Positions 225 through 25,838 of a stretch of DNA of 25,838 bases are shown here, in pieces; position 1 is the first letter of the stretch; each line of letters begins with the position of its first letter. The notes below the pieces were generated by a model. The model ran no database searches and was not told the origin of the DNA. It saw nothing but the letters and a program-made list of their open reading frames with translations. Made by a program: the position numbers and the translations under genes. Source of the stretch: a virus (taxonomy: Duplodnaviria > Caudoviricetes); the IMG/VR virus record IMGVR_UViG_3300037991_005720, positions 1 to 25,838 of that record. One strand, given 5' to 3'.

Positions 225-410
225 TTAAGGTTTTACATCAAGACCGATGCAAAACTTTGGCGGTAGCACTTTTGCTTCAATGTTCACGCCTACTCTGGTA
301 GCAGGATCAGTGAAAGGAACAGGAATGCTTGCCCCTGTGTTAAGTGACTCACAAGAAACACTGCAAGCTAACAAAGAAGCTGCGCCAATAAGGATAAGAA
401 TCTTTTTCAT
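225..410 (-). CDS. Small lipoprotein (61 aa)
   Basis: MKK, a hydrophobic stretch and a lipobox-like Cys (LLAC16 or SVSC20). It has its own divergent promoter just upstream and is the only convincing minus-strand gene. Confidence 0.75.
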   Translation of the reverse strand: MKKILILIGAASLLACSVSCESLNTGASIPVPFTDPATRVGVNIEAKVLPPKFCIGLDVKP

Positions 411-2782: not shown

Positions 2783-4624
2783 ATGAGACGAAAAATCAAA
2801 TCGATATACCTAGATAACATCAAAGGTCACTTCGACAGGAAGTACGAGTTGGGCGGTAGAGATACATTCCACGGAAAAAATGGACAGGGAAAGACTGCGA
2901 TACTTGACGCAATCAAGCTAGCAACCCTCGGTGAGCATGATGTATTCGGAAAGCAAGGCAAAAGCATAAAGCAACTGTCGAACGGCTCATCAGAGATGAC
3001 TGCGGAAGTTGAGTACACTGACGGCACAAACTCTACCTTTAAGCTCAAAGGCACAACTAAAACCACAACAGGAGAAATAACTGATCCAAGTTTTAGGCTA
3101 GGGCTAATGCCAGATAAGTTTTGGGACGCAAGCAAGAAATCCAAGACGCAACACCTACTGGATTCCGTAATGGCAAATCGGGAAGCAGGTGACCTAATCC
3201 CAATCGATCAACTACAGAAATCGATAACAAGAGTACGCCATAAAGACATGGTAACTAAAGGGGAGGACAGTGAACTGGACACCTTGAAAGAGTGGGCAGA
3301 TAAAGCAAAGGCAACAATCCAACACAGTGCAGATATAGAAGGCTTGAGAAAGTTAGAAGAATCAGCGAACAAACAAAAGTTGGAAGCCTCAAAGAAATAC
3401 AGAGATTTAAAGCGATTCATAGAGACTGAGAGAGAACCTAAGGATATAGACTTGAAAAAAGCTGAAGAGCTAAACCAAGAATTGCAAAGAAGACAGCAAA
3501 ACGAAGAAGAACTGCTCAAAGCCATAGAAGAAGGGTTTGAAGGTCCAAACCCCTGCTATGTTTTGGCAGAGTCCACAATAGTTGACGATATCAAGCAGGT
3601 TCGAGCAGAAATGCAGGAAAAGATGGACTTAGCAGAAATGGAGGCAAGGGAGATCAAAGCAGGAATCAAGGACACACAAGAATACCTAACCAACAATGCT
3701 GTAATAAATAAAGACAGAGTGTTCATGGATCACCCACCAACAGAAGGTAAGGAGGTAGCAATCACAGCCACAGCATACTACAAAGGCGATGACTTCATGC
3801 TCAAAGATGAAACCATACGTTGGAGCGACATTGAAGACAAAGGCATAGAAGTCAATCAGCATCTTTTGGCTAATCTTCAGTTAGAGCTATCCTCACTAGA
3901 AGAAAGCATAGCGCAATACCAAAAGCAGATAGATGAAGCAACAGAAAGCATAACGGAAACGCAGGAGCGGAATAAACAACAATTGATCTTCACAAAAGTT
4001 GCAGAACGCTTAGATGAAGTGGGTAGACCAATAGAGGAAACACAACGTCTCATAATTCAGCACCATGAGAATTTAGAGAACATAGCTTATGGATCATACT
4101 ACAAATCAAAAGAAAAGGAGTTGGCAAAGGCAGATAGAACTGTCGCTACCCTCAAAGCCATACACAAAGTAATCGAGCAATACTTAACTGACGTAACAGA
4201 CTCAATCGTATCAGACGTTCTTGGAACTTTAAATGTCGTGACAGAAAACATAATTGCGGAAGAAATAGAATGGAACGGCTCCACAATAGGAATCACAAAA
4301 GACTACGGGGATATGAACAAACAGTGGATACCGATAGAGGCATTCAGTGGTGCGCAACAAGCAGTAGCAAAGATAGCACTGGCAGTAGCAATGGCACAAG
4401 GAAGTTCACACAGGATAGTAGTACTCGATGAACTCAGCAGGTTAGATAAAGACAACAGGAGAAGATTGGTGATGAACCTCAACTTGGCGCAAACTAAAGA
4501 CATCATCGACCAATACATACTGTTCCCCATAGAAGGATGCTTCAGCAAGGATGTAACGCTACCTCCAGAGGGACAGAGAGAAGAGTTCGAGATAACATGC
4601 ACGGAGGTGAAAAGAAATGATTAA
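2783..4624 (+). CDS. SbcC/Rad50/SMC-like ABC ATPase with central coiled coil
   Basis: Walker A GKNGQGKT, a long coiled-coil region, signature FSGAQ, and Walker B/D-loop VVLDELSRLD. Confidence 0.85.
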   Translation: MRRKIKSIYLDNIKGHFDRKYELGGRDTFHGKNGQGKTAILDAIKLATLGEHDVFGKQGKSIKQLSNGSSEMTAEVEYTDGTNSTFKLKGTTKTTTGEITDPSFRLGLMPDKFWDASKKSKTQHLLDSVMANREAGDLIPIDQLQKSITRVRHKDMVTKGEDSELDTLKEWADKAKATIQHSADIEGLRKLEESANKQKLEASKKYRDLKRFIETEREPKDIDLKKAEELNQELQRRQQNEEELLKAIEEGFEGPNPCYVLAESTIVDDIKQVRAEMQEKMDLAEMEAREIKAGIKDTQEYLTNNAVINKDRVFMDHPPTEGKEVAITATAYYKGDDFMLKDETIRWSDIEDKGIEVNQHLLANLQLELSSLEESIAQYQKQIDEATESITETQERNKQQLIFTKVAERLDEVGRPIEETQRLIIQHHENLENIAYGSYYKSKEKELAKADRTVATLKAIHKVIEQYLTDVTDSIVSDVLGTLNVVTENIIAEEIEWNGSTIGITKDYGDMNKQWIPIEAFSGAQQAVAKIALAVAMAQGSSHRIVVLDELSRLDKDNRRRLVMNLNLAQTKDIIDQYILFPIEGCFSKDVTLPPEGQREEFEITCTEVKRND

Positions 4625-4823
4625 TCAGGACAGCTACCCAAATTGCGAAACAAAAGAGCAAGCACTCAACACTATAGGGAGACTAATACTACATAGAGCC
4701 ACTAGGAGAGAGATAGAGACATGGCTAGAGATAATGATAGAACATAACGCATTCCAACCATACCCACAGGATGAGAGCATAAATAAGACCATTAAGCATA
4801 ACTTCCTACATAGAGAGACATAG
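4617..4823 (+). CDS. Hypothetical protein
   Basis: The start overlaps the end of the ATPase gene and is preceded by GGAGGTG (SD-like). Confidence 0.6.
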   Translation: MINQDSYPNCETKEQALNTIGRLILHRATRREIETWLEIMIEHNAFQPYPQDESINKTIKHNFLHRET

Positions 4824-4942
4824 CCAGTACCCAGTAAGCCATAGCCAAAAAAATGTCTGGATGTTACCCAGATTCGCTTTGGAGAAATAACAAAAGGGGG
4901 CAGATGTCGCAAAACTCAAAAACAAACTAGAAATACAAACAG

Positions 4943-5158
4943 ATGCCAAAGCAAAAGAGACTGACGTTCAAGCCAACGATATACAAGCTAACGATATACG
5001 CCACACACTGGTGTGGGAGTGGAGCAAAGCAGAAGGAGAAGAAGGTAGACTTACGGGATGAGGTGGAGGAAATGATATGGAACATACCTGCAATGAATTT
5101 ACTTTCGCCCGTTTCAGTGGAGACTATAGCCATAGAGGAGAATAACGATGCCGAGTAA
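4943..5158 (+). CDS. Hypothetical protein
   Basis: Co-oriented ORF that overlaps the start of the next gene. Confidence 0.55.
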   Translation: MPKQKRLTFKPTIYKLTIYATHWCGSGAKQKEKKVDLRDEVEEMIWNIPAMNLLSPVSVETIAIEENNDAE

Positions 5159-5363
5159 CCACATAAGCAACGAACCGTACCATGAATGGCTAAGAGATAC
5201 AGCCAGACGCAAGGAACAAGAGAAGAAGATAGCCAACCAGTACGTATCTACACGTCCGCTACCCACTGGAGGATGGGAGATAGTGGTGCGAGTAACCAGT
5301 GACGATGAGTTGCCAGTTACACTCAGGAAAGTATACGAATCTATAGGAAAGAAGGCAGAATAG
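5148..5363 (+). CDS. Hypothetical protein
   Basis: GAGGAG upstream of the ATG. It overlaps the previous ORF and is the last gene before the non-coding interval. Confidence 0.6.
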   Translation: MPSNHISNEPYHEWLRDTARRKEQEKKIANQYVSTRPLPTGGWEIVVRVTSDDELPVTLRKVYESIGKKAE

Positions 5364-5451
5364 TTATGGGGGTACCTAAGGTTTTTTTTGACACGCCTGC
5401 CCTATATATACAGCGTTTGCGAATTATTTTACGTTTTAGGTATCTTTTTTA

Positions 5452-5479
5452 TTGATATACGGGCAACAAGTGCTAAGAT
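5452..5479 (+). promoter_or_regulatory. Sigma70 promoter driving the ncRNA cluster
   Basis: TTGATA (5452-5457)-16 nt-TAAGAT (5474-5479) with extended -10 TG and an upstream T-rich tract. The spacer contains the ACGGGCAACAA motif. Confidence 0.7.
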
Positions 5480-5487
5480 TCAAGTAC

Positions 5488-5536
5488 GTTAATTGAAATT
5501 AACTGCTTGGATGCGTTCAAGCCGATCTTTGAAAAC
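5488..5536 (+). promoter_or_regulatory. rrn-leader-like antitermination element (two hairpins plus boxA-like sequence)
   Basis: Hairpins GTTAAT/ATTAAC (5488-5503) and GCTTGGA/TTCAAGC (5505-5522) directly precede GATCTTTGAAAAC (5524-5536), which resembles bacterial rRNA-operon boxA. Confidence 0.6.
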
Positions 5537-5550
5537 AGCACATCGAATTG

Positions 5551-5699
5551 AGAGCTTCTATCAGCCTACTAGGTCAGATACGAAGTAGGCTCCTTGGGAA
5601 TAGTAGGCTAGGGTTTGATCACCAGAAGGTTCGACTCCTTCTCCCACGCAGAGTCAATGATCTTAGGAAGTGACACCCTAGTCGGTTGATAAAAGCTCT
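5551..5699 (+). ncRNA. Structured RNA domain 1, containing a tRNA T-arm
   Basis: Ends pair as AGAGCTT/AAGCTCT and TATCAGCC/GGTTGATA. The internal hairpin AGAAGG-TTCGACT-CCTTCT (5624-5642) has a canonical T-loop. Confidence 0.7.
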
Positions 5700-5704
5700 T
5701 TACC

Positions 5705-5852
5705 CAGTAACCAGAACAATATGCCAGTAGGCACGTAACACTGGAGACTCGCCAACGCTGCAGAACGCAACAGTGCCTCAGGTCATGCGACTAACAGGTT
5801 GGTAGGAAATAACCTAGAAAAGAAAAGTTGGTTTCGTGCCACTTGGTTACTG
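5705..5852 (+). ncRNA. Structured RNA domain 2, probable pseudoknot
   Basis: Closing stem CAGTAACCA/TGGTTACTG (9 bp). The loop of hairpin CCAGT/ACTGG contains GGCACG, which matches CGTGCC at 5835-5840. An inner stem GCCAAC/GTTGGT encloses further hairpins. Confidence 0.68.
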
Positions 5853-5858
5853 ACAATT

Positions 5859-5933
5859 TCGCCACCCAATGCCTCGAGGGACACTACCCAGAGATGGTAC
5901 CTAAATGTGAACGTAAATAGGGGTGGGTGGCGA
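5859..5933 (+). ncRNA. Structured RNA domain 3 (75-nt cloverleaf-like fold)
   Basis: A perfect 10-bp stem TCGCCACCCA/TGGGTGGCGA encloses CCTCGAGG, TACC/GGTA and CCTA/TAGG arms. Confidence 0.65.
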
Positions 5934-5944
5934 TACCTCTTTAT

Positions 5945-6032
5945 GGAGAAGAGTAGCTCGGGTGCCACTGACGAGTGGGTAACATCCTAGCTACAATGTT
6001 GGCAATTGCAGGTTCGATTCCCGCCTTCTCTT
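5945..6032 (+). ncRNA. tRNA-like RNA (non-canonical, no assignable anticodon)
   Basis: A 7-bp acceptor-like stem GGAGAAG/CTTCTCT stacks on the T-arm GCAGG-TTCGATT-CCCGC, and TAGCTC lies near the 5' end. The anticodon-like arm has a 10-nt loop and no CCA is encoded. Confidence 0.6.
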
Positions 6033-6096
6033 CACCTTTCATGGAAATGGCAAGTCATAGTAGACTGCCAAAACAAACATAAACACAAACTACATT

Positions 6097-6135
6097 AGCC
6101 TCACTGCGTTGGTAGTTGCGTAGTGAGGTTTTTTT
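6097..6135 (+). terminator. Rho-independent terminator closing the ncRNA cluster
   Basis: Stem AGCCTCACTGCG/CGTAGTGAGGTT running into a T-tract. Confidence 0.8.
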
Positions 6136-6140
6136 ATGCC

Positions 6141-6441
6141 TAGGAGCCACGAGGATCGTCCAGAGTTCTTTCCCTTAGATCAGACAGACATTTACAGCCC
6201 AATTACCTGCAGGCTCTTCTCGATCATTCTCGAGCTGTTTAAGGGAGGGGGCTTCGAATTCCGCCATAGGGGGGCTTTGCTGAGCTAACAATAAGCGAAC
6301 GCACAAATTTTTAGAGACAAAAGAAACAGACGGGCAACAATTTTGAAACCTTTTTATTAGGTTTGAAACAAGGTTTGAAAGGCTCGATCCACGAGAGGCT
6401 CCCAAACTGAAAAAAATTTCGCCAATCTGCTAACGCAGATT
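6141..6441. other. Non-coding repeat-rich region; candidate genome terminus, packaging site or origin
   Basis: G-runs (6243-6274), TTTGAAA three times (6342, 6362, 6374) including AGGTTTGAAA twice, imperfect flanking inverted repeats (6143-6158 vs 6385-6402), and hairpin AATCTGC/GCAGATT (6424-6441). Confidence 0.35.
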
Positions 6442-6483
6442 TAGAGAGTTGCCAAAAGAGAAAACAGTTATAATGTTTGTGGC

Positions 6484-6801
6484 ATGGAGCCTGAGAAGTC
6501 CATTATCAAAGAATTTTTAAACGGAGGTTGGCTCGTTCCCCTGATTGGGGCTGCTGCTATGTTTGCCAGATTACTATCAGGACAGAATGAGCTTTCTGCC
6601 AAGCAACAACTGAAAAGAATAGTTACAGCGGTTTTAGCTTCGGGGGTAGCATGGTTTGTTTTGGAGCAAACCGATGTTTCCTCTTTCACAAAAGCTCTGA
6701 CATACGGAATAATTGGAGTTGTTAGCCCAGAGGTTATAGGAGGTTTAGTGAGGTTGGGGCAAAAGTTTGAAAAAAACCCAGAAAAATTCATAAAAAAATG
6801 A
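6484..6801 (+). CDS. Putative holin
   Basis: 105 aa with about three hydrophobic segments and a basic C-terminal tail. It is the first gene of a cassette ending in an endolysin, with TATAAT at 6469-6474 upstream. Confidence 0.65.
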   Translation: MEPEKSIIKEFLNGGWLVPLIGAAAMFARLLSGQNELSAKQQLKRIVTAVLASGVAWFVLEQTDVSSFTKALTYGIIGVVSPEVIGGLVRLGQKFEKNPEKFIKK

Positions 6802-7403
6802 CACCACGACTAATTGTTTACTGTTTAGCTGCCATAACTTTGGCATTTGGAATAAAAGGCTTTTTGTTACACGATGATATCAAGAACACGTTGAAAGACA
6901 ACGCCAGACAACAGGAGGCTGCCACAATGGAGATTGGAATGTGCTTCGATTGGTACGGAGTGATCATTGTGGACTCGGTTGTGAAAACGGCAACGGGATT
7001 AATTACGCCAGAGATGATGATTGAAACTCTGGAAGAAGAAAGGGAAAACAAAAATGAGTATTTGAGGTTGTATAAACCAACAATCACCGAGGCAGAAAAA
7101 GAGAATGCAGAGTTTGTTTTCAGACAGGACAAAAAAATCAAGTTTTTGGTAGATAGACTCATAGAATTGGCAAAGAAAAACAATGTAGAGGGGATAGCAG
7201 AACTGATTCCGCCAATGTATGACCTGACAGACCCAACCATAGAGGCGATAAACGAGTTGATTGACGAAAAAATGTACTACAATGAAAGAAATGGAGAAAA
7301 GCTAAACAAAAAAGTCGACTCATTTTCAGAGTTTTTAGGGCTTCTTTTAGTTTTAAGTATCGTTTTGTGCGTATGCGTTTCTTTTACAAGAGTCTGCCCC
7401 TAG
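6798..7403 (+). CDS. Membrane protein: TM - chemoreceptor-type four-helix-bundle sensor domain (4HB_MCP-like) - TM, no cytoplasmic domain
   Basis: Hydrophobic helices at residues ~5-24 and ~179-197. YGVIIVD, Y..TITEAE and MYDLTDPTIEAINELID resemble conserved segments of MCP four-helix-bundle ligand-binding domains. ATGA overlap with the holin stop. Confidence 0.62.
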   Translation: MTPRLIVYCLAAITLAFGIKGFLLHDDIKNTLKDNARQQEAATMEIGMCFDWYGVIIVDSVVKTATGLITPEMMIETLEEERENKNEYLRLYKPTITEAEKENAEFVFRQDKKIKFLVDRLIELAKKNNVEGIAELIPPMYDLTDPTIEAINELIDEKMYYNERNGEKLNKKVDSFSEFLGLLLVLSIVLCVCVSFTRVCP

Positions 7404-7436
7404 TTGATTTAGGAAAAAAAGGAGCGATCTTTAGAA

Positions 7437-8078
7437 ATGAAGTTTGAAGGTAGAGACAAGATAGTAAAAGCGATTCAACGCAAGCTAGGAATAGTTGCAG
7501 ACGGGGTCGATGGACCTATTACTTGGAGAACAATACTTTCAGCGGTCACGGAAGCGAAGCCAACACTAAAGGATGCAGAGTTTTCGGGGGTAGCAAAACG
7601 CATGGTCGGATACGCAAGGGATGAAATAGGAGTTTCGGAAATAGATGGTAGCAATTGTGGACCCAGAGTCAACGAGTACAAAGCTGCGACTTGGCTGGAT
7701 GCAGAAAAACCTTGGCCGTGGTGCGCTGCTTTCATTTGCTGGCTAATACAAGAAGCAATCAAAGAAGAAAAGGTGACTTTCAAAAGACCTAGAACGGCTG
7801 GCGCATGGGATTTCGAAAACTGGGCAAGAAAAGAGCAAGAAAAAGGAGTCGGAATTGAGTTAATCAAGCCAATCGCAAACGAAGAAAAAATTAAGGCTGG
7901 GGATATAGTTGTTTTCAGATTTTCACACATAGGGCTAGCTGTTGGAGAGCCAAATCAAAGTGGCTATGTTGCAACCATAGAAGGAAACACAAATGGTGCT
8001 GGTAGCAGAGAAGGTGGATCTGTTTTGGAAAAAAGCAGACACATGAACAGCATCAGAAGCGTGATTAGAATATTGTAG
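7437..8078 (+). CDS. Endolysin: N-terminal peptidoglycan-binding motif plus CHAP domain
   Basis: IQRKLGIVADGVDGPITW (PG-binding), then PWCAAF, GDIVVF..SHIGL and TIEGNT (CHAP catalytic Cys/His). Confidence 0.88.
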   Translation: MKFEGRDKIVKAIQRKLGIVADGVDGPITWRTILSAVTEAKPTLKDAEFSGVAKRMVGYARDEIGVSEIDGSNCGPRVNEYKAATWLDAEKPWPWCAAFICWLIQEAIKEEKVTFKRPRTAGAWDFENWARKEQEKGVGIELIKPIANEEKIKAGDIVVFRFSHIGLAVGEPNQSGYVATIEGNTNGAGSREGGSVLEKSRHMNSIRSVIRIL

Positions 8079-8080
8079 AG

Positions 8081-8410
8081 ATGTACGAATACAATGCAAA
8101 GTGCTTGAGAGTGATAGACGGAGACACTATCGAAGCCAGAATAGACCTCGGGTTCTACGTGTGGGTAGAAAGAACACTGCGCCTCAGAGGAGTGAACACA
8201 CCAGAGATCAGAACAAAAGATTTAAGCGAAAAGCGCAGGGGGCAAGCTGCAAAAAAAAGAGTAGAGGATCTTATGGCAGAGAATAATTACGAGTTCAAAC
8301 TCATAAGCCACAACGTAGGGAAATACGGAAGAGTAGTCAGCGATATTATACTTCCGCAAGGTGATCTGGGAGATATTTTGATAATGGAGGACATGGGGGA
8401 GGCATATTAG
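8081..8410 (+). CDS. Thermonuclease (SNase-like) family protein
   Basis: VIDGDTI...DLGF, RLRGVNTPE and GKYGR motifs. Confidence 0.9.
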   Translation: MYEYNAKCLRVIDGDTIEARIDLGFYVWVERTLRLRGVNTPEIRTKDLSEKRRGQAAKKRVEDLMAENNYEFKLISHNVGKYGRVVSDIILPQGDLGDILIMEDMGEAY

Positions 8411-8470
8411 CACCCTAAAAGACTGTATATGTAGAGTTTTAAAAAAAGTAAAGAAAACTTAAATATTAAC

Positions 8471-8499
8471 TTTACTTGTTGCCCATCTAAAGCAATAAT
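8471..8499 (+). promoter_or_regulatory. Putative sigma70 promoter with TGTTGCCC operator-like motif in the spacer
   Basis: TTTACT-17 nt-AATAAT after an A-rich tract. The spacer begins TGTTGCCCAT. Confidence 0.55.
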
Positions 8500-8507
8500 T
8501 AGGTATT

Positions 8508-14692: not shown

Positions 14693-16529
14693 AGTTAAAC
14701 AAAGATTAGCAGATAACGCAGAAAATGTGTGCCAGTTACTCCTGCCAAACGGAGTGAGAAGAAGAAACGAATGGCATATAGGAAGCATTGAGGGAGAGGC
14801 AGGAAGCTCAATGAGGATTCACCTAGAGGGAGCAAAAGCAGGATTATGGTGTGATTTCAGCAGTGGCGACAAAGGTTCAAACCTCCTTGAGCTTTGGAGG
14901 GTAGTAAAAGACATACCATTCAAGGAAGCATTAGAACAAGCCAGAGAGTATTTAGGAATAGCACCAGAACGGCAACTACGCTCCGTGAGTACCCCCAAAA
15001 AGCGAAAGGAGCCAATAAAGCTGCCAGATGTAGAGGTTGGCACAGAAAGCGGTGTGAAGACCAAATGTGGAGCATATTTAAACGGGGAAAGGGCTATCGG
15101 GTTAGACATATTGAAAGACTATGACCTGCGCTGCGAAAATGGAAAAATAGTTTTCGTTTACTGGAATCAAAACAAAACAGAAATCGAAATGCTAAAGTTT
15201 ATGGCTTTAGAGAGGGAGGATGGCAAAAAACATATATTCACAAGCAAAGATGCAAAAAAAACTTTATTCGGAAAACAGACCATAACCGATGATTGCTCAA
15301 CGCTTGTAATCACCGAAGGAGAGTTGGATGCAATGAGTTACGCAGAGGCAGGAATACAAGCAGTCAGTGTTCCTTTCGGTGCTAAGTGGGAGACTGATTA
15401 TGGTTCAGACCCAAACATGGAATGGATACAGAACGACTATGATTTTTTGGAAAGGTTCACAACGATTGCAATTAGCATGGACATGGACGAAGCAGGAAGA
15501 AGAGCGACAGCCTCAATAGTAAAAAGGCTAGGAGAAAGCAGGTGCAGAGTAATCGAGTTGCCAGAGAACGATGCAAACGAAACTATGTTAAAGCATGGGT
15601 GGGACGCACTTACGGAAGCATTCGAAAGCGCAGTATATGTTGACCCAGAAACTCTACACGGAGTGGACAGGTACAAAGATGATGTTCACGATTTATTGTA
15701 TTCAGACGTATGCAAAGGTTTACCCCTGCCTTGGGGTGATGCGCCTTTCCATATCAGAATGAATGAATTAACAGTCGTCACTGGTTTCAACGGGTCGGGC
15801 AAAACAATGTTATTGAATTACCTATGCGTTTGGTTCGCCAGTTTGGGACAAAGAGTGTGCATAGCTTCGTTAGAGGTGCCTGTTAAAATGAACCTATCTT
15901 ACCTCGTGAGACAAGCACTTGGGAAAGAAGACCCATCTAAGAAAGATTTCGAACGTGGCATGAGTTGGCTCGGGAGAAACTTTTGGTTTTACGATCACGT
16001 AGGCAAAGTTGAAGCTGACGATGTTTTGCAGACTTTCATTTACGCCTACAAAAGATACGGAGTTAAGTTGTTCATAATAGACTCATTTATGAAACTAGGT
16101 TTCGGAGTCGACGAATATAACAAACACAAAGAATTTATGGACAAAATAACAGAGTTCGTAAACTCATACGACGTTCATGTGTTTCTGGTAGCTCACGCAA
16201 GAAAGAAGGAAAGCGAAAGAGAAAGGATAGACAAGATGGACATAAAAGGGGTTTCAGAAATAACAGACATGGCGCATAACTGCATAACATGTTGGCGGAA
16301 CAAACAGAAAGAACAAGAGGTGTATGAGTTAATGCAAGCAGGTGACGCAGACAGCATGGCGATGGCTCACGAAATACAGTCACTAAAATACGACGCTTTG
16401 ATGTCAGTCGTGAAACAAAGAAATGGAGATGGTGATGAACCACAAATAAAGTTGTGGTACGGTAAAGGAGATAGACAATATTATTCAAATGGGATTAAGC
16501 TGCCAGTAAGTTACGTAGACGATGAATAA
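14679..16529 (+). CDS. DNA primase-helicase (Toprim plus SF4/DnaB-like helicase; T7 gp4/Twinkle-like)
   Basis: ITEGELDAMS, SVPFGA, DMDEAG and DANE (Toprim). VVTGFNGSGKT, SLE, FIIDS, LVAHARK, DIKGVSEI and KQRNG (helicase). Confidence 0.93.
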   Translation: MNADEVKQRLADNAENVCQLLLPNGVRRRNEWHIGSIEGEAGSSMRIHLEGAKAGLWCDFSSGDKGSNLLELWRVVKDIPFKEALEQAREYLGIAPERQLRSVSTPKKRKEPIKLPDVEVGTESGVKTKCGAYLNGERAIGLDILKDYDLRCENGKIVFVYWNQNKTEIEMLKFMALEREDGKKHIFTSKDAKKTLFGKQTITDDCSTLVITEGELDAMSYAEAGIQAVSVPFGAKWETDYGSDPNMEWIQNDYDFLERFTTIAISMDMDEAGRRATASIVKRLGESRCRVIELPENDANETMLKHGWDALTEAFESAVYVDPETLHGVDRYKDDVHDLLYSDVCKGLPLPWGDAPFHIRMNELTVVTGFNGSGKTMLLNYLCVWFASLGQRVCIASLEVPVKMNLSYLVRQALGKEDPSKKDFERGMSWLGRNFWFYDHVGKVEADDVLQTFIYAYKRYGVKLFIIDSFMKLGFGVDEYNKHKEFMDKITEFVNSYDVHVFLVAHARKKESERERIDKMDIKGVSEITDMAHNCITCWRNKQKEQEVYELMQAGDADSMAMAHEIQSLKYDALMSVVKQRNGDGDEPQIKLWYGKGDRQYYSNGIKLPVSYVDDE

Positions 16530-17067
16530 ATCAAGCACAGGAGAAATATTAGCAGAAACAATAGACATGCTAACAAGTGGAAAGTTTGAAGTAAAAACTT
16601 TCACACAAGGAGAGGCGCAAGTTCACCAAATAATGGTTGATCGCAGTGAGTATGGGAAAGTATGCGGATCAAAAGGAAAAATGATTCGTGCAATCAAATA
16701 CATTTGGGAGGTTTGCATATCTAGAAATGAAGAAGTTCCAATACGAGTTAACCTCAAAGAACCAATCGATGGTTACTCAAAAGGCAGAAGTGCAGAAGTT
16801 CCATCAGAGTTGTTTGACCTAAATGATTTTTTAGAACTGATAGAAGACATTATGGACTTAGTTGGTCAAATAGAAGTCGAGTTAGATGACAGCGAAACAA
16901 GGCAATCACTAGGATGGGACGCAAGAAACAAAACTTATAAACTAAAAATTTACGTTGAAGACCCACCCAAATATTTAAAATCGGAGTTCGAAGAGGCTTG
17001 CCAAGTTCTATTTTTCGCAATGGCTAAAGCAAATGGAGGCTTAGTAGATATAATTTTTGATGGATAA
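16522..17067 (+). CDS. KhpA/YlqC-like KH-domain RNA-binding protein with C-terminal extension
   Basis: IMVDRSEYGKVCGSKGKMIRAIK parallels the KhpA pattern V..ED.GKVIGK.G....AIR, and the GxxG loop is intact. Confidence 0.65.
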   Translation: MNKSSTGEILAETIDMLTSGKFEVKTFTQGEAQVHQIMVDRSEYGKVCGSKGKMIRAIKYIWEVCISRNEEVPIRVNLKEPIDGYSKGRSAEVPSELFDLNDFLELIEDIMDLVGQIEVELDDSETRQSLGWDARNKTYKLKIYVEDPPKYLKSEFEEACQVLFFAMAKANGGLVDIIFDG

Positions 17068-20459: not shown

Positions 20460-23400
20460 ATGCCAAAAGGACTTGGAAGCAATTTCGGCAAGTTTGGTAA
20501 AAATTATGATAGGAAAAACCCTATCAGTTTGGATATCAAATTTGATCAAGATCAGGATGCAAACTGGGATGAAATAGGGCTAGTACATACTAGACCATGT
20601 TCAGCTATACAGCGAAACTCAAATGGCGCATTAGTTTTCGCTCCTGAGAACCGTATTGCAAATTCTGAGAACTTAGCAGCATTACTAACAAACAACACAA
20701 GTGCAGGTGGAGGAGCTACTGTCGAAGCAGCCTCAAGTATAACAGACCCATTTGGAGGTAATGCAGCTTACAAAATAAAAGAAGCTGCTTCATCAGCAGG
20801 TAATATATATCACACTAAGTTCCATACTGTTACAGGTTTAAAAACTGGCGAGCAATATATATGCTCAATCTACGCAAGAGCAGGGGAAACTCATGGATTG
20901 TTTCTTGAGTCACACGGAGCTTCTACCAGTAAAGATCACGCTCGTTTCGGTCTTGGTGGAGACAAAGGAAGACAAGGTGGAGGGGCAGGTGCTGCTACAA
21001 AATCTGGATACATAGAAAGAATAAATAACGATTGGTATAGACTCAGCATAGTAACAGTAGCTGCTTCAAATCAAATCCATTTCGGCGTAAGAGTACTAAG
21101 GCAGTACAGTGTTGTAGGAAACGAGTCAACTGGAGATGGTAATACAGGTCTATACCTCTTCGGGATGCAAATAGAACGCTGCATCAAAAGAACAGGCGTA
21201 AACAGTCAGAACACGCATGTGTTTATGCCAGATTACCATAAGCCATCTGCATACAAAAAAACAACTGGCACTGCATATTATGGACCAAGGTTTGATTATG
21301 ACATAGACGGAAATGCGAAAGGCTTGCTGATAGAGCAAGAATCAACGAACCTGATAACCCATTCTCAGAAAGTTATAGCTGGAACAGGCTGGTCAGCAAC
21401 TAATATCACGACCGATGCAAACGCTACTGAAGCACCAACAGGAGAGAAGGAAGCATCAAGAATAAAGACCACAACTGCTAGTGGTCTGCATATAATTGGA
21501 CCTGCAAGCACTCCAAGTATACCTGCATCAACGAATTTCACGTATTCAGTTTATCTTAAAAAAGATTCAACTGATTACGCAAAGATATATCACAATGATT
21601 CTAATTCAATGATGCTTCAAGTTGACTTGAATAAAGGAAAAATTACTAATACTGGCTCAATAAACGGAAGATCATTTATCGAAGATGCAGGAAATGGATG
21701 GTACAGAGTTGGTTACAACCACAAAACACCTTCAACTCATGCTGTAGGAAGCATGTTTATCTACCCCACTGATGTAAACGGAACAATAAATCACTCAGGA
21801 AATGAATGGAGTATATTTGCTTGGGGAGTTCAAGTTGAGCTAGGGGGTGCTGCAAGTTCTTTGATTCCTACATTTGGAGCGACTGCAACCAGATCAACAG
21901 ATGTGGTGAAAATTACTGGAGACAACTTCACAAAATTTTTCAATCCAAATCAAGGGACAGTGGTTTTCGAAGGTTCTGTAATAAAGGGACTGAAAGAGGA
22001 CAGTGTTTACAATAGGCTTTTTGAATTTCACAACGGATCAAATAACAATGATCGTATACTTGCCTACCTAAATAACAGCCAAGTAGCTGTAGGCTCATTG
22101 CGTTCTGGAGGCACAACCCAAATATCTGCAGGTGGCACAAACAGCAAAACGACATCTGGCGATGTATTTAACTTTTCTTTGACCTATGGAGAGAATTACT
22201 TTAAGCCGAATGCCGACCAAAGAAACAGCACTACTACAACTTCGCTAACTTTACCTACAGGAATAAACACTTTAAACATTGGCACCGATCGCCCGAATGC
22301 TAAAGGGCTAAATGGTTGGGTGAAAAAATTTACCTACCACAAAAGAAAAAGATCAGAGGATTGGAACCAACAAAGCACTAAAAACCTAAACGTACTTTCA
22401 GAAGTTAGAGGAGGTTTGTCTGCGCTAAGTCTACGAAATGTTTCAGGAAAGCCTAAGCAAAAAGTAGTTAGAGTAAGAAGAGGATTAGATGACATAGAGC
22501 AAGATTTTACAGCACTACAAGTAGCAGACGGATCACTCGCAAGTTTCTGTAAATTTAACACAGACACCTTGCCCCTAAACAAAGCTCTTCCAGTTGCAGA
22601 ACTAGTGACAAACGGGGATTTTAGTTCAGCTACAGGTTGGACACTCAGTGGAGCTACCATAAGCGGAGGTAAGCTAAATTTTGCTAACTCTGTTTTTGAT
22701 ACAGCAAAACCTGCTGGACTGAAAGGCGATAACGTATCGAACTACAGAATGTCTTTTACAGTTGATTCAATATCAGGTGCACTTTTGTTCATATGGCCTG
22801 GAGGGTTCTTCAATCCTACAATAACATCGGCAGGAAGTTATGTTTATGAATCCACATCACCAAGTAGCAATGAATTTATCATGGCTAACAATGGTGGCCC
22901 CATCGTTATTGATGATTTTTCTGTGAAGAAAATAACTGCTGATGGAAATGAAGTTGCAGGAATGGGAGTTTCAACAAGAAAAATAAGCAGTGCCACTTTA
23001 GACCCTGCTATGATAGTGAGGCGAGCAGATGACAACATTGAAGCTATTGTTAATTACGATTCAAACGGAGTAATATCTGCCAACAGCAGCATAGCAAACC
23101 CATCATACAACTTGGTTCCAAACAGCAAAGACATGGAAGATTGGGACAATGATGAAACACCACAAATCGGTCAAAACTACAGAATAGAAGATGGAGTTAC
23201 GGACGCATTTGGCACCAATACCGCCCAAAGACTTCACACAACAAGTTACAGCAACTCTATACCAAGACAGCGTGTTGCTATCGAAAAAGGCGAGGATTAC
23301 ACTCTAACTGCATACGTGGAAAAGAAAACTATATCAGGTGGCTATGCACCTACCATATTGTTATACCCGTATGACATAAACAAAGTTCAACCTGTTTATA

Positions 23401-25838
23401 ACACTTACGGTCATAATTCATCTGTAGCAGGATTCTTTATCGATGTAACAAACGGGCGAGTCGGATATATAGGAAACGGCAACTCAGCCCAGTGGCTAAA
23501 GTTAGCAATCAAAGAAGAAAACGGATTCTACAAAGTTACAGCCCATTTCAAAGACCCTTTATTCCCATCCACAAAAGATGGATACATGGTTTTGACACCA
23601 AAGCTAGACTCTGCTGCAAACTTGTACACCACAGGCACTTTCGGAGGAGCTCCTGCTGGAGCTAGAGATCTAGCTTGGCATAGTTTCCAAGTCGAAAAAA
23701 CACAATACGGAACACTCAGTGAAGAGAAGTTAACAAACGGAGATTTCTCAAGCGATACCATTTGGTTTAAGAGTTCAGCTTTCTCTATCGCAAATGGAAA
23801 AGCAAATTTCTCTGGGTCATCAACTGGAAAAATATCTCAGAAATGCCACTTCAACAGAGCAAGAACATATCAGTTAACTTTCACTGTTTCTGATTCATCT
23901 TCCACAGCCAGAATTTTCATTGGCAATCACGATGGAAACAAAAGCTATAATCCTTTGCAATCTGGTTACAGCAATTTCGCAAATGGAACTCACACAGTGG
24001 ACCTCAAGGTGACAAATAGTAATGAAGGCTTGCTAGATAGCTCCAACGCAAACGGAGTTCCAAGAGACTTAGCAATATGGGGGCATTCAGACAATGGCAG
24101 TTTCAAGTTAGACAATGTAAGCCTAAAAGAGAAGCAGGTAGAAATAGTTACAAACGGATCATTTGCTGCCGACAGCGACTGGACTAAAGCTGCCGACTGG
24201 ACAATCAGCGGAGGCAAAGCAAACCTAAATACCACAACAACAGGAAGAACACTAGCTCAAAACTCTATCGGACAAGGTGGAGGAAGTTATGAAGTAACAT
24301 ATACAGTTTCCAACTACGTAGCAGGGGATGTAAGAATAAAGCTAGGAAATGCTTATGGCGAAACAAGAAACGCCAACGGAACATACACTGACATTATCAC
24401 GCCAATAATTCCAATGGAAGGCACAGAGTCAGGAGTAACTTGGACAGACAGAGCAGCAGAAGTTGCTAATCTTCATTTCGAAAACGTAACAGCCACAACT
24501 AATCTCTCAATCGATAATGTTTCGATGAAAGAGAGAATAGAAATACCTCGAGCTTATCAAGAAACACCCACCACTCCGAACGGAAACGTACCATTCGGAG
24601 GTGTAACTGACGCACCAAACAGTGATGCAGGGGACACAGACGCAAGCACTTTGGGTGGCTTCTTGAATAAAGAAAATTTATTCTTAAACAGTGAAGATTT
24701 CACAGATGGAATATGGCTCAAAAGCAATGTTTTAGTCGAAAAAAGCGATATAACTGACCCATTTGATGGTTACAACAGTTACCTCATAACATCAGATGCC
24801 AACGGAATCGGAGCTATACTACAAGACAACCTAACAACAACTGATGATAAATACGTGGTTTCTGTTTACCTTAAAAAAGGAACAATGGATACCGTGCAAT
24901 TCGGGCTAGTTGACCAAGGAAGCGCATCAGTTAGGGCAGAAGTAAATCTTACTGATGGAACTATATCTTCTTCAGCAGGTTCTCCAACAGAAATGACCAT
25001 AACACCAGTGGGTTCTGATGGTTGGTTTAGATGTAGTTTAGCTTATACTTTACCAGCAGGAGGCTCTGATACTTTCCAGTTGAGATCAGGTTCAACTAGC
25101 AAGAGTGGCGAAAATTTTTATGCTTTCGGTTACCAAGTAAACACTGGTTCATTGAAGGATTATCAAAAAACTACTGGAACAGCTTTGACTGGAAATATCC
25201 ACGTAGTTCAATGGATAGGACAAGGTGGAATCAGAGGATTCGTGCAAGACACAGCAAGCCTACAACCAAGATTAGCTGCTGGTGGGGAGCTTGTGAAAGA
25301 CAGCAATGGAATACAAAGTGTTGATTTCAATTCACAGAGAATGACATCTGAGAATGATTTGAAGGACTACACAAGGCTGGATACGTTCATGCACTTGGAA
25401 ACAAGTGATGAACAGTGGATCTTGTTTTCTGATTCTTCATCAACTGACAAATATGGATTTACAGTTCAGAATGGCGACACTTCTAACAACAGCACTGCTG
25501 ACGCTCAAAATTACGGTTACAATCATTTGTTTTTTGTAGACAATAAACAGACTACAGGAAACACAAGAAACGAAATGCATGACAGACTAAGCGGTAAACC
25601 TCATGTGCTTTCCGTGAAAAATGCAGCAACAATAGGTTGGGGTGATGTTTCAATCGGAAAATGGGACGTTAGTTCAGATTGGGACTTTAAGGGCAAAATA
25701 TCTGAGATTGTAATGTATGGCAATGTTGTACCTGACGATTCAAGGTCAGAGGTAACATACGAAATGCTACAGGCAAAAGGTATAAACTTAGTAGACTCAG
25801 ATTTCTCAACAAGTGATGGATTCACACTAGCAGCAAGT
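20460..25838 (+). CDS. Giant multi-domain fibre/spike (adhesin-like) protein, partial, at least 1793 aa (absent from the ORF track)
   Basis: ATG at 20460 (MPKGLGSNFGK...). Spot checks stay in one frame to the window end (...LVDSDFSTSDGFTLAAS), and the track lists no stop-terminated + ORF here. Repeated NL..NSE/GWYR modules, PRFDY...GLLIE, and repeated ELVTNGDFS modules. Confidence 0.85.
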   Translation, partial: MPKGLGSNFGKFGKNYDRKNPISLDIKFDQDQDANWDEIGLVHTRPCSAIQRNSNGALVFAPENRIANSENLAALLTNNTSAGGGATVEAASSITDPFGGNAAYKIKEAASSAGNIYHTKFHTVTGLKTGEQYICSIYARAGETHGLFLESHGASTSKDHARFGLGGDKGRQGGGAGAATKSGYIERINNDWYRLSIVTVAASNQIHFGVRVLRQYSVVGNESTGDGNTGLYLFGMQIERCIKRTGVNSQNTHVFMPDYHKPSAYKKTTGTAYYGPRFDYDIDGNAKGLLIEQESTNLITHSQKVIAGTGWSATNITTDANATEAPTGEKEASRIKTTTASGLHIIGPASTPSIPASTNFTYSVYLKKDSTDYAKIYHNDSNSMMLQVDLNKGKITNTGSINGRSFIEDAGNGWYRVGYNHKTPSTHAVGSMFIYPTDVNGTINHSGNEWSIFAWGVQVELGGAASSLIPTFGATATRSTDVVKITGDNFTKFFNPNQGTVVFEGSVIKGLKEDSVYNRLFEFHNGSNNNDRILAYLNNSQVAVGSLRSGGTTQISAGGTNSKTTSGDVFNFSLTYGENYFKPNADQRNSTTTTSLTLPTGINTLNIGTDRPNAKGLNGWVKKFTYHKRKRSEDWNQQSTKNLNVLSEVRGGLSALSLRNVSGKPKQKVVRVRRGLDDIEQDFTALQVADGSLASFCKFNTDTLPLNKALPVAELVTNGDFSSATGWTLSGATISGGKLNFANSVFDTAKPAGLKGDNVSNYRMSFTVDSISGALLFIWPGGFFNPTITSAGSYVYESTSPSSNEFIMANNGGPIVIDDFSVKKITADGNEVAGMGVSTRKISSATLDPAMIVRRADDNIEAIVNYDSNGVISANSSIANPSYNLVPNSKDMEDWDNDETPQIGQNYRIEDGVTDAFGTNTAQRLHTTSYSNSIPRQRVAIEKGEDYTLTAYVEKKTISGGYAPTILLYPYDINKVQPVYNTYGHNSSVAGFFIDVTNGRVGYIGNGNSAQWLKLAIKEENGFYKVTAHFKDPLFPSTKDGYMVLTPKLDSAANLYTTGTFGGAPAGARDLAWHSFQVEKTQYGTLSEEKLTNGDFSSDTIWFKSSAFSIANGKANFSGSSTGKISQKCHFNRARTYQLTFTVSDSSSTARIFIGNHDGNKSYNPLQSGYSNFANGTHTVDLKVTNSNEGLLDSSNANGVPRDLAIWGHSDNGSFKLDNVSLKEKQVEIVTNGSFAADSDWTKAADWTISGGKANLNTTTTGRTLAQNSIGQGGGSYEVTYTVSNYVAGDVRIKLGNAYGETRNANGTYTDIITPIIPMEGTESGVTWTDRAAEVANLHFENVTATTNLSIDNVSMKERIEIPRAYQETPTTPNGNVPFGGVTDAPNSDAGDTDASTLGGFLNKENLFLNSEDFTDGIWLKSNVLVEKSDITDPFDGYNSYLITSDANGIGAILQDNLTTTDDKYVVSVYLKKGTMDTVQFGLVDQGSASVRAEVNLTDGTISSSAGSPTEMTITPVGSDGWFRCSLAYTLPAGGSDTFQLRSGSTSKSGENFYAFGYQVNTGSLKDYQKTTGTALTGNIHVVQWIGQGGIRGFVQDTASLQPRLAAGGELVKDSNGIQSVDFNSQRMTSENDLKDYTRLDTFMHLETSDEQWILFSDSSSTDKYGFTVQNGDTSNNSTADAQNYGYNHLFFVDNKQTTGNTRNEMHDRLSGKPHVLSVKNAATIGWGDVSIGKWDVSSDWDFKGKISEIVMYGNVVPDDSRSEVTYEMLQAKGINLVDSDFSTSDGFTLAAS

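Follow-up and report, generated by a model that had tools for sequence, protein, structure and literature searches.

Between positions 5452 and 6135 of a tailed-phage genome fragment lies a cassette that holds at least one new structured RNA motif and no credible protein gene. The fragment (hereafter the window: the whole of IMG/VR record IMGVR_UViG_3300037991_005720, 25,838 nucleotides (nt), about 43% complete; also called G000) encodes SbcC-like, endolysin, exonuclease, ParB-like, primase-helicase and tail proteins. From 5' to 3' the cassette comprises a promoter, a leader with a hairpin and a boxA-like word, four units each closed by its own stem, a trailer hairpin and an intrinsic terminator (Table 1), all of which we find where a preliminary description of the DNA had placed them; only the linkers, given there as 5–11 nt, need amending, as that between units 1 and 2 is about 4–5 nt (TACC), with unit 2 beginning immediately after it. 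Sequence from the cassette is present in RNA libraries of two studies, and the region is very probably a real structured non-coding transcript. On balance we favour the explanation that this is a cassette whose units are exchanged whole among related phages, in which one boxA-protected precursor would undergo tRNA-type processing to four stable RNAs, for which protein decoys are the most plausible role.

Unit 2, a covarying RNA with a predicted pseudoknot

The new motif is unit 2, which is compact, covarying, uncatalogued and predicted to be pseudoknotted. It has one distant homologue, 83% identical, in a related phage (G001; L081:1663–1805), whose record is also a fragment (51%). Twelve of the 23 substitutions between the copies make up six two-sided compensatory pairs, spread over four helices; among the 43 pairs of the structure, one more has changed on one side (G-U to G-C) and two are broken. 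When this named structure was tested, four of 500 shuffles scored as high, and slid structures gave only 0–1 such pairs, whereas a looser null for the whole alignment, admitting any helix of at least four pairs, was not significant (five observed; 41/300 and 53/300 nulls as high). Two of the helices (I24 and I25) had been found in the window sequence when no homologue was yet available, and six of the seven differing positions in them are compensatory. The closing stem is weak in the full-length folding ensemble; its support comes from covariation instead. In our model this stem encloses an H-type pseudoknot (5724–5728/5740–5744 and 5730–5739/5831–5840) bearing a branched domain together with an A-rich linker that is conserved. 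Being invariant between the copies, the first helix of the pseudoknot is only predicted. Many unpaired purines are also invariant. The G001 copy contains many GGA and AGGAGG words, a composition that might suit a sponge for CsrA-type proteins or ribosomes.

Further relatives of the cassette proved scarce. Patterns for unit 2 gave one true match among 25 and one among 17 viral loci, and one among two metagenome loci, all of them the G001 sequence, and two patterns gave none in GTDB genomes. A model (R1) matched two of 50 records, the window and G001, with no match in phage T4 or in three loci (L148, L150 and L151) described below. The cassette was unmatched among GenBank phages, where that of G001 was matched at the level of the promoter only (56 records). 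No cassette was found in 80 of 125 loci anchored on the 201-amino acid (aa) neighbour gene, and scans that took the SbcC-like, primase and 209-aa genes as protein anchors revealed no further one. A DNA search over 45 of 50 records yielded five weak matches (E values 0.05–0.09), and the four that were inspected were due to chance. Full-text searches of the literature found no description of the cassette; a term search of excerpts and six supplementary files of Fremin et al. (PMC10690425) gave nothing, and unit 2 could be among the 10,006 candidates of that study. Covariation among homologues, which the preliminary description had named as a check on its RNA model, is thus found for unit 2 (in two sequences), while unit 3 has no distant homologue, a stem-pattern search giving no viral loci.

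Table 1. Features of the RNA cassette, in window coordinates
Feature	Position	Strand	Basis or remark
Promoter, sigma70-type, TTGATA-16-TAAGAT, extended -10 TG	5452..5479	+	Sequence match
Leader hairpin	5505..5522	+	Pair probability about 0.8
boxA-like word TCTTTGAAA	5526..5534	+	Same 9-mer in unrelated leaders (G001, one X3 contig)
Unit 1, about 150 nt, stem-closed; inner T-arm-like hairpin 5624-5642; 3' tail TACC	5550..5704	+	
Unit 2, 148 nt; closing stem around predicted H-type pseudoknot, branched domain in loop 3	5705..5852	+	
Unit 3, 75-nt RNA; 10-base pair (bp) closing stem, two hairpins; 3' tail TACC	5859..5937	+	
Unit 4, tRNA-like; acceptor 5945-5951/6025-6031 (7 bp), T-arm 6008-6024; 3' tail TCACC	5945..6036	+	
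3' trailer hairpin, then A/C-rich single strand	6048..6070	+	Fold; retained in variant without unit 4
Intrinsic terminator, 13-bp stem and T-run	6097..6135	+	6040-6140 folds at z -4.1

Exchange and loss of whole units

The cassette region was compared with assembled contigs of three public runs (X1, X2 and X3) that had been found using this stretch. Unit 1 is replaced in X2 and X3 contigs by an unrelated unit, which ends TTACCA and abuts position 5705 exactly. One X3 contig has unit 2 shortly behind the boxA-like word, after a different leader, and one continues into other sequence after 5700, past unit 1. Two loose ends in X3 run from the tail of unit 3 (5936) straight into the trailer (6040), unit 4 being absent; the substitutions peculiar to this junction speak for a separate genotype and against a reverse-transcription jump, although the record of X3 names no library type. 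As unit 1 can be swapped and unit 4 cleanly missing, the units are modules rather than parts of a single fixed RNA. At most about 4 bp of pairing is expected between any two units, against 23–49 bp inside units, and this, together with the exchange and loss of whole units at their borders, favours autonomous RNAs. The linkers flanking unit 4 (5935–5947 and 6034–6045) are short near-repeats, ACCT..TTT..ATGGA, which may offer a recombination route for its gain and loss.

Two of the runs are metatranscriptomes. The single X1 contig (seawater, by its record) on positions 4800–7000 corresponds to 5613–5857 with one difference, and we do not use the absence of X1 contigs from the coding flanks as proof of higher expression; a contig of X2 (marine) consists of the foreign unit followed by 5705–5796. 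The third run, X3, covers the cassette and coding flanks alike, and a loose end at 4867 has 22 letters that resemble a template-switch cDNA adapter, so that X3 may be RNA-derived. Of the transcript mapping that the preliminary description had proposed, these contigs supply the presence of cassette pieces in RNA libraries, which falls short of proof of transcription, and the X1 and X2 contigs both span a unit junction.

A second natural arrangement is provided by G001, which was reached via a neighbouring gene and has several genes in common with the window, at 30–90% protein identity. Its cassette lies in the matching neighbourhood, after SbcC-like and 71-aa genes and before a 179-aa gene, and consists in order of a promoter, TCTTTGAAA, the unit 2 copy, three stem-closed units (about 140, 85 and 150 nt) and a T-run; it folds at z -4.6, with none of 100 shuffles as low. 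The three other units bear no sequence likeness to units 1, 3 and 4 of the window. Unit 2, the only constant unit, has now been seen in four contexts (including G001), standing first, second or beside unrelated neighbours.

The preliminary description had left two alternatives, several small RNAs or one large multi-domain RNA. The first has gained support, from exchange at the borders and covariation in unit 2; the second is weakened, and only weakened, since contigs bridge a junction. In its present form it would hold that one unprocessed 650-nt RNA carries the stem-closed domains as interchangeable beads, like a large ornate RNA of which one part varies, and the X1 and X2 contigs that cross unit junctions speak for it. 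We nevertheless consider it unlikely: the position and neighbours of unit 2 vary, unit 4 can be absent, there is little pairing between units and no match to GOLLD or ROOL, and the tRNA-like tails and T-arms described below suggest free ends.

The constancy of unit 2 invites a different thought, that it might be an undescribed self-cleaving or processing ribozyme that frees the 3' end of the preceding unit, somewhat as theta ribozymes do, the cleavage site of which adjoins phage tRNAs (excerpts of PMC10879173). Its pseudoknot, its invariant unpaired purines and its position beside an ACC or ACCA end in two of the four contexts would all suit such a role. Nevertheless, we think this decidedly improbable. 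No Rfam ribozyme matches; a crude descriptor for ribozymes of the hepatitis delta virus (HDV) type, unvalidated on a known ribozyme, had no match; the 5' strand of unit 2 pairs with its extreme 3' end, unlike the HDV fold; unit 2 directly follows the leader, as the first unit, in G001 and in one X3 contig; and the X1 and X2 contigs run across the would-be cut site.

The promoter and boxA-like word also led to other loci. A blind pattern combining them matched four viral loci, G001, L148, L150 and L151, and in two of the three besides G001 (L148 and L150, not L151) stem-closed non-coding RNA follows. In L148 (371–757 and 1044–1381), a tmRNA gene is followed by a promoter, a boxA-like word and a stem-closed RNA of about 340 nt that scores 28.2 bits on the manA model (cut-off 55; E 0.0002), a hint that some manA-like RNAs are stand-alone transcripts. 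L150, a 165-kilobase (kb) phage record, is a second array of the same design: on its minus strand, downstream of the pattern match at 1001–1046, a promoter and a boxA-like word are accompanied by some five stem-closed units, unrelated and 100–150 nt long, with no Rfam match. The three loci share nothing with the window beyond short local matches to the T-arm/3' end of units 1 and 4. The search rule of a strong promoter plus a boxA-like word has thus given two more stem-closed phage RNA loci in three independent matches.

Proposed transcription and maturation, and possible function

The individual signals differ in strength. Promoter-like sites are no more frequent than chance in 3500–8500 (9 found, 8.5 expected). 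In G001 the equivalent site is a perfect TTGACA-17-TATAAT, and a natural variant (5477 G>A) makes the -10 element TAAAAT, nearer to consensus. TCTTTGAAA occurs twice in the window (0.83 expected), which is not significant alone; it is present in three unrelated leaders, those of the window, G001 and one X3 contig (the loose end at 5712), and, judged by the boxA consensus, it is a likely Nus-factor antitermination site. The leader itself varies in X3, and G001 has no equivalent of the leader hairpin. The terminator, located at 6097–6130 with 13 pairs and a T-run, is the longest of seven sites found (4.5 ± 2.3 expected).

The region (656 nt) has a folding energy of -205.8 kcal/mol (z -3.5; 0/20 shuffles equally low), the z-scores of units 1–4 being a moderate -2.9, -1.7, -2.7 and -2.2. 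The two lowest-energy tiles among 172 of 150 nt across the contig sit in the cassette, although by z-score they rank only 4th and 11th (10 shuffles each). All four closing stems were recovered among inverted repeats (I1, I24, I11 and I15), and in the full-length ensemble most pairs in the stems of units 1 and 3 reach probabilities of 0.85–1.0 (0.73 for one end pair). With promoter and boxA matches within chance when taken alone, and only moderate z-scores for each unit, it could be asked whether this is intergenic DNA that folds by accident, a DNA-level element, or a small protein gene at 5799–5990. These possibilities are largely refuted by the compensatory pairs (including the G-U to G-C change), the T-loop motifs and the contigs from RNA libraries. 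The preliminary description was right that no credible protein gene is present: the open reading frame (ORF) at 5799–5990 has no candidate homologue among 5.8 billion proteins, and in G001 its frame has no start codon and meets a stop after 18 codons.

Three of the four units (1, 3 and 4) have ACC within 5 nt past the closing stem, compared with seven of 348 control helices in coding DNA, by a criterion chosen after the data were seen. The best fold of unit 4 is three-way, with a 7-bp acceptor stacked on a T-arm and a long hairpin replacing the D and anticodon arms; an X3 variant that possesses unit 4 mends an A-C mismatch in the T-stem (6010 A>G, 6009 C>T). Its score on the Rfam tRNA model, 17.2 bits, lies under the cut-off of 29 (E 0.0098 for the contig and 1.9 for 5350–6500), and so the earlier judgement that no unit is a canonical tRNA holds, whereas the judgement that none is recognisable does not, unit 4 being recognisably tRNA-like. 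A canonical cloverleaf was rejected: besides scoring below cut-off, it would call for D and anticodon loops of 13 and 10 nt, respectively, and is 19–25 kcal/mol worse (-6.1 or -12.0, against -30.8 for the three-way fold). We also discounted a relaxed ARAGORN match at unit 4, one of 19 intron-containing calls window-wide, and a reading of its CTGACGA as part of a hammerhead, for which there is no downstream GAAA partner. Unit 1 holds a second T-loop hairpin and about 16 interrupted closing pairs; its interior fold is ambiguous, and forcing the inner T-arm plus a mini-acceptor costs 7 kcal/mol. The 23-bp continuous stem drawn for it previously is one of several folds, the minimum-energy fold splitting that stem. 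Its 5' arm, AGCCTACT, has several possible partners, two copies of AGTAGGCT among them (5563–5571, 5584–5592, 5601–5609), but in one X3 variant the second copy is lost to small indels, so that a conserved switch is doubtful. Units 2 and 3 are without a tRNA-like 3' part of T-arm plus acceptor; in the X3 variant of unit 3 a G-C pair becomes G-U and the tail reads TAC-T.

That the transcript is matured into separate RNAs seems to us probable. RNase P recognizes a 3' RCCA, and its substrates include phage RNAs other than tRNA, among them C4 and M3 (excerpts of PMC11143913). In the scheme that we propose, host RNA polymerase would transcribe from the promoter at 5452–5479, and the boxA would recruit Nus factors, enabling the untranslated 650-nt RNA to escape Rho. 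RNase P-type cuts would be made at the foot of every closing stem, a single cut at 5704/5705 leaving unit 1 with its 3' ACC and unit 2 with its 5' end; trimming would leave a 3' NACC tail, with CCA repair possible. The units would then bind host RNA-binding or defence proteins as decoys. The most speculative step is that unit 4 could serve as an anticodon-less tRNA mimic (acceptor plus T-arm), occupying host proteins that attack or sense tRNAs. If RNase III were instead to excise the units at their closing stems, as in rRNA operons, the ACC tails would be incidental. The rRNA-type leader with its boxA-like word, the long interrupted stem of unit 1, and the units of L148 and L150, closed by long stems without ACC, all point that way. 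However, substrates of RNase III are about two helical turns long and the closing stems of units 2–4 only 7–10 bp, and a cut within a stem would open the unit, yet the stem of unit 2 covaries; we regard excision by RNase III as very improbable.

Several observations weigh against the processed cassette that we favour. The ACC tail is missing after unit 2 in both phages, after unit 4 of G001 and after the four listed closing stems of L150; in G001 two of the four units show it, provided that their last pairs are taken as open, TAC-T stands in its place in the variant that lacks unit 4, and no unit of the window encodes a full free NCCA. No tRNA scores above cut-off in the window or G001 (both fragments), unlike the situation in T4, and ARAGORN calls no genes. 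In the full-length ensemble the stems that close units 2 and 4 have pair probabilities of only about 0.46 and 0.25, the covariation comes from two sequences, with the structure partly drawn with both in view, and units 1, 3 and 4 are known only with close variants. The X1 and X2 contigs both bridge a unit junction, which fits a precursor and an unprocessed transcript equally; contigs give no RNA ends, strand or level, and DNA may be in the libraries.

If the RNAs are indeed separate, the chance that they act as decoys is, we judge, a little short of even. Fast exchange of unrelated cargo at one locus is the behaviour of accessory counter-defence genes. Among functions, protein decoys seem the most likely because of this exchange, the mimic shape of unit 4 and the lack of excess complementarity to phage genes. 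The last point bears on the idea that the units are base-pairing regulators of the C4/CI type, matured by RNase P, or a cis-acting leader for the lysis genes. Unit 3 does have the size and outline of C4/CI RNAs (about 77 nt, a closing stem and two hairpins), and a weakly holin-like and a CHAP endolysin gene follow the cassette; C4 RNA is moreover a substrate of RNase P (excerpts of PMC11143913). But exact matches of the cassette to the remainder of the contig reach 12 nt at most, matches of at least 10 nt number 31, against 26.6 ± 4.8 in shuffles (exact matches, on this contig fragment only), and there is no Rfam C4 match; as for a leader, a strong terminator separates the cassette from the lysis genes, and the G001 homologues of the 105-aa and 201-aa genes are 9 kb away on the opposite strand. 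Either role is improbable. At its boldest our reading would be of an RNA-only accessory locus, a promoter–boxA–terminator chassis on which unrelated tRNA-ended RNAs are swapped like anti-defence genes, matured by host tRNA machinery and neutralizing defence or surveillance proteins, with unit 2 a new pseudoknotted class that is possibly catalytic; taken whole, this is a speculation that we would not expect to hold. If the units were decoys, exchangeable RNA cargo would join the means of phage counter-defence.

Upstream, the cassette is bordered by a 71-aa gene whose end is at 5363; downstream, the next gene starts at 6484 and codes for a weakly holin-like protein of 105 aa. AT skew is about 0.39–0.40 in the upstream genes and 0.07 in the cassette; it is also low in the downstream genes (0.13). 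In G001 the 105-aa/201-aa gene pair (window 6484–7403) is inverted and moved (27858–28777), adjoining a homologue of the small gene at window 225–410. Just upstream of the promoter, 5364–5450 contains a T-run and GGGGGTACC; this stretch may be an UP element, what is left of a terminator, or a signal in the DNA. After the terminator, 6140–6480 is a second non-coding stretch with an imperfect long hairpin (about 6163–6255), three TTTGAAA words (6342–6380) and an 11-mer, ACGGGCAACAA, identical with the promoter spacer at 5459–5469; its folding is not better than that of shuffles (z -0.1 and -1.5). The lowest folding z-score on the contig (-6.5; 10 shuffles) belongs to the 150-nt tile at 24451, and an ORF of more than 1790 codons (20460–25838, plus strand) leaves the contig end and probably encodes a tail or virion protein. 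A candidate RNA-binding partner for the cassette is a 181-aa phage KhpA-like protein with a KH domain (16522–17067, plus strand; Pfam PF13083, E 1.3e-7, slightly under the cut-off), which has 17 relatives at 43–98% identity and no homologue in the G001 fragment.

Comparison with known RNA systems

The search of Rfam suggested by the preliminary description, which was to include GOLLD, ROOL, tmRNA, RNase P RNA and Y RNA, gave no family above cut-off, and ARAGORN found no tRNA or tmRNA gene. Over the window no match had E of 1 or less; over 5350–6500 only tRNA appeared at E of 10 or less, and the G001 cassette had one irrelevant match. The models of GOLLD, ROOL, OLE, tmRNA, RNase P RNA, the signal recognition particle RNA and 6S RNA gave no match. 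GOLLD and ROOL, so far as partial sources describe them, are like the cassette in being phage-encoded, of similar total length, pseudoknotted and of unknown function; they are, however, single RNAs, often near tRNA islands, and the cassette consists of exchanged independent modules.

Other likenesses concern parts of the cassette. As with theta (HDV-like) ribozymes, a pseudoknotted RNA in some contexts lies immediately 3' to a CCA-like end, but unit 2 is much larger, closed end to end and without an HDV-type match. YrlA, the bacterial and phage Y RNA, is a T-arm-bearing non-tRNA of about 100–150 nt, one member of which is cut by RNase P and receives CCA (excerpts of PMC4201824). The motif GNCGAAN(0-1)G taken from those excerpts has no match in either cassette, no Ro60/TROVE gene lies within about 4 kb in either record (0/2), and the arm order, permuted in YrlA, is normal in the cassette. 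The leader recalls that of bacterial rrn operons (boxB-boxA), in which a hairpin and then a boxA word also lie just past the promoter of an untranslated operon, the role of boxA being in Nus antitermination (excerpts of PMC10250234). Unlike rrn operons, the cassette has no rRNA and its closing stems are short; TCTTTGAAA matches the E. coli consensus only in part.

The closest precedent is RNA C and RNA D of phage T4 (species 1, 139 nt, and species 2, 119 nt), annotated as small stable RNAs beside tRNA-Arg: two non-tRNA RNAs head to tail, with 1–6-nt linkers, in a tRNA-type transcript. RNA C has a T-arm and an acceptor-like strand at its 3' end, as unit 4 does, and it scores as weakly on a tRNA-clan model (17.5 bits) as unit 4 does on that of tRNA; RNA D ends CACC. 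Their function is still unknown according to excerpts of PMC3014915 and PMC9697503. Neither has an Rfam family, so the absence of an Rfam match does not mean a new kind of RNA: the preliminary description called the system undescribed, which is right for the sequences (no Rfam family at cut-off) but not for the kind, which has this precedent. In 24 pairwise comparisons of rnaC and rnaD with 12 units, the sole match to a window unit was the generic T-arm of unit 4. The cassette further differs from the T4 genes in carrying a promoter, a boxA-like word and a terminator of its own, and in the swapping of its units between phages. With no tRNAs, and no homology beyond the T-arm, it is not a member of the T4-type stable-RNA operons, but it probably works like one: RNAs resembling RNA C and RNA D stand here free of tRNAs, and natural swaps and presence/absence variants mark the limits of each unit.

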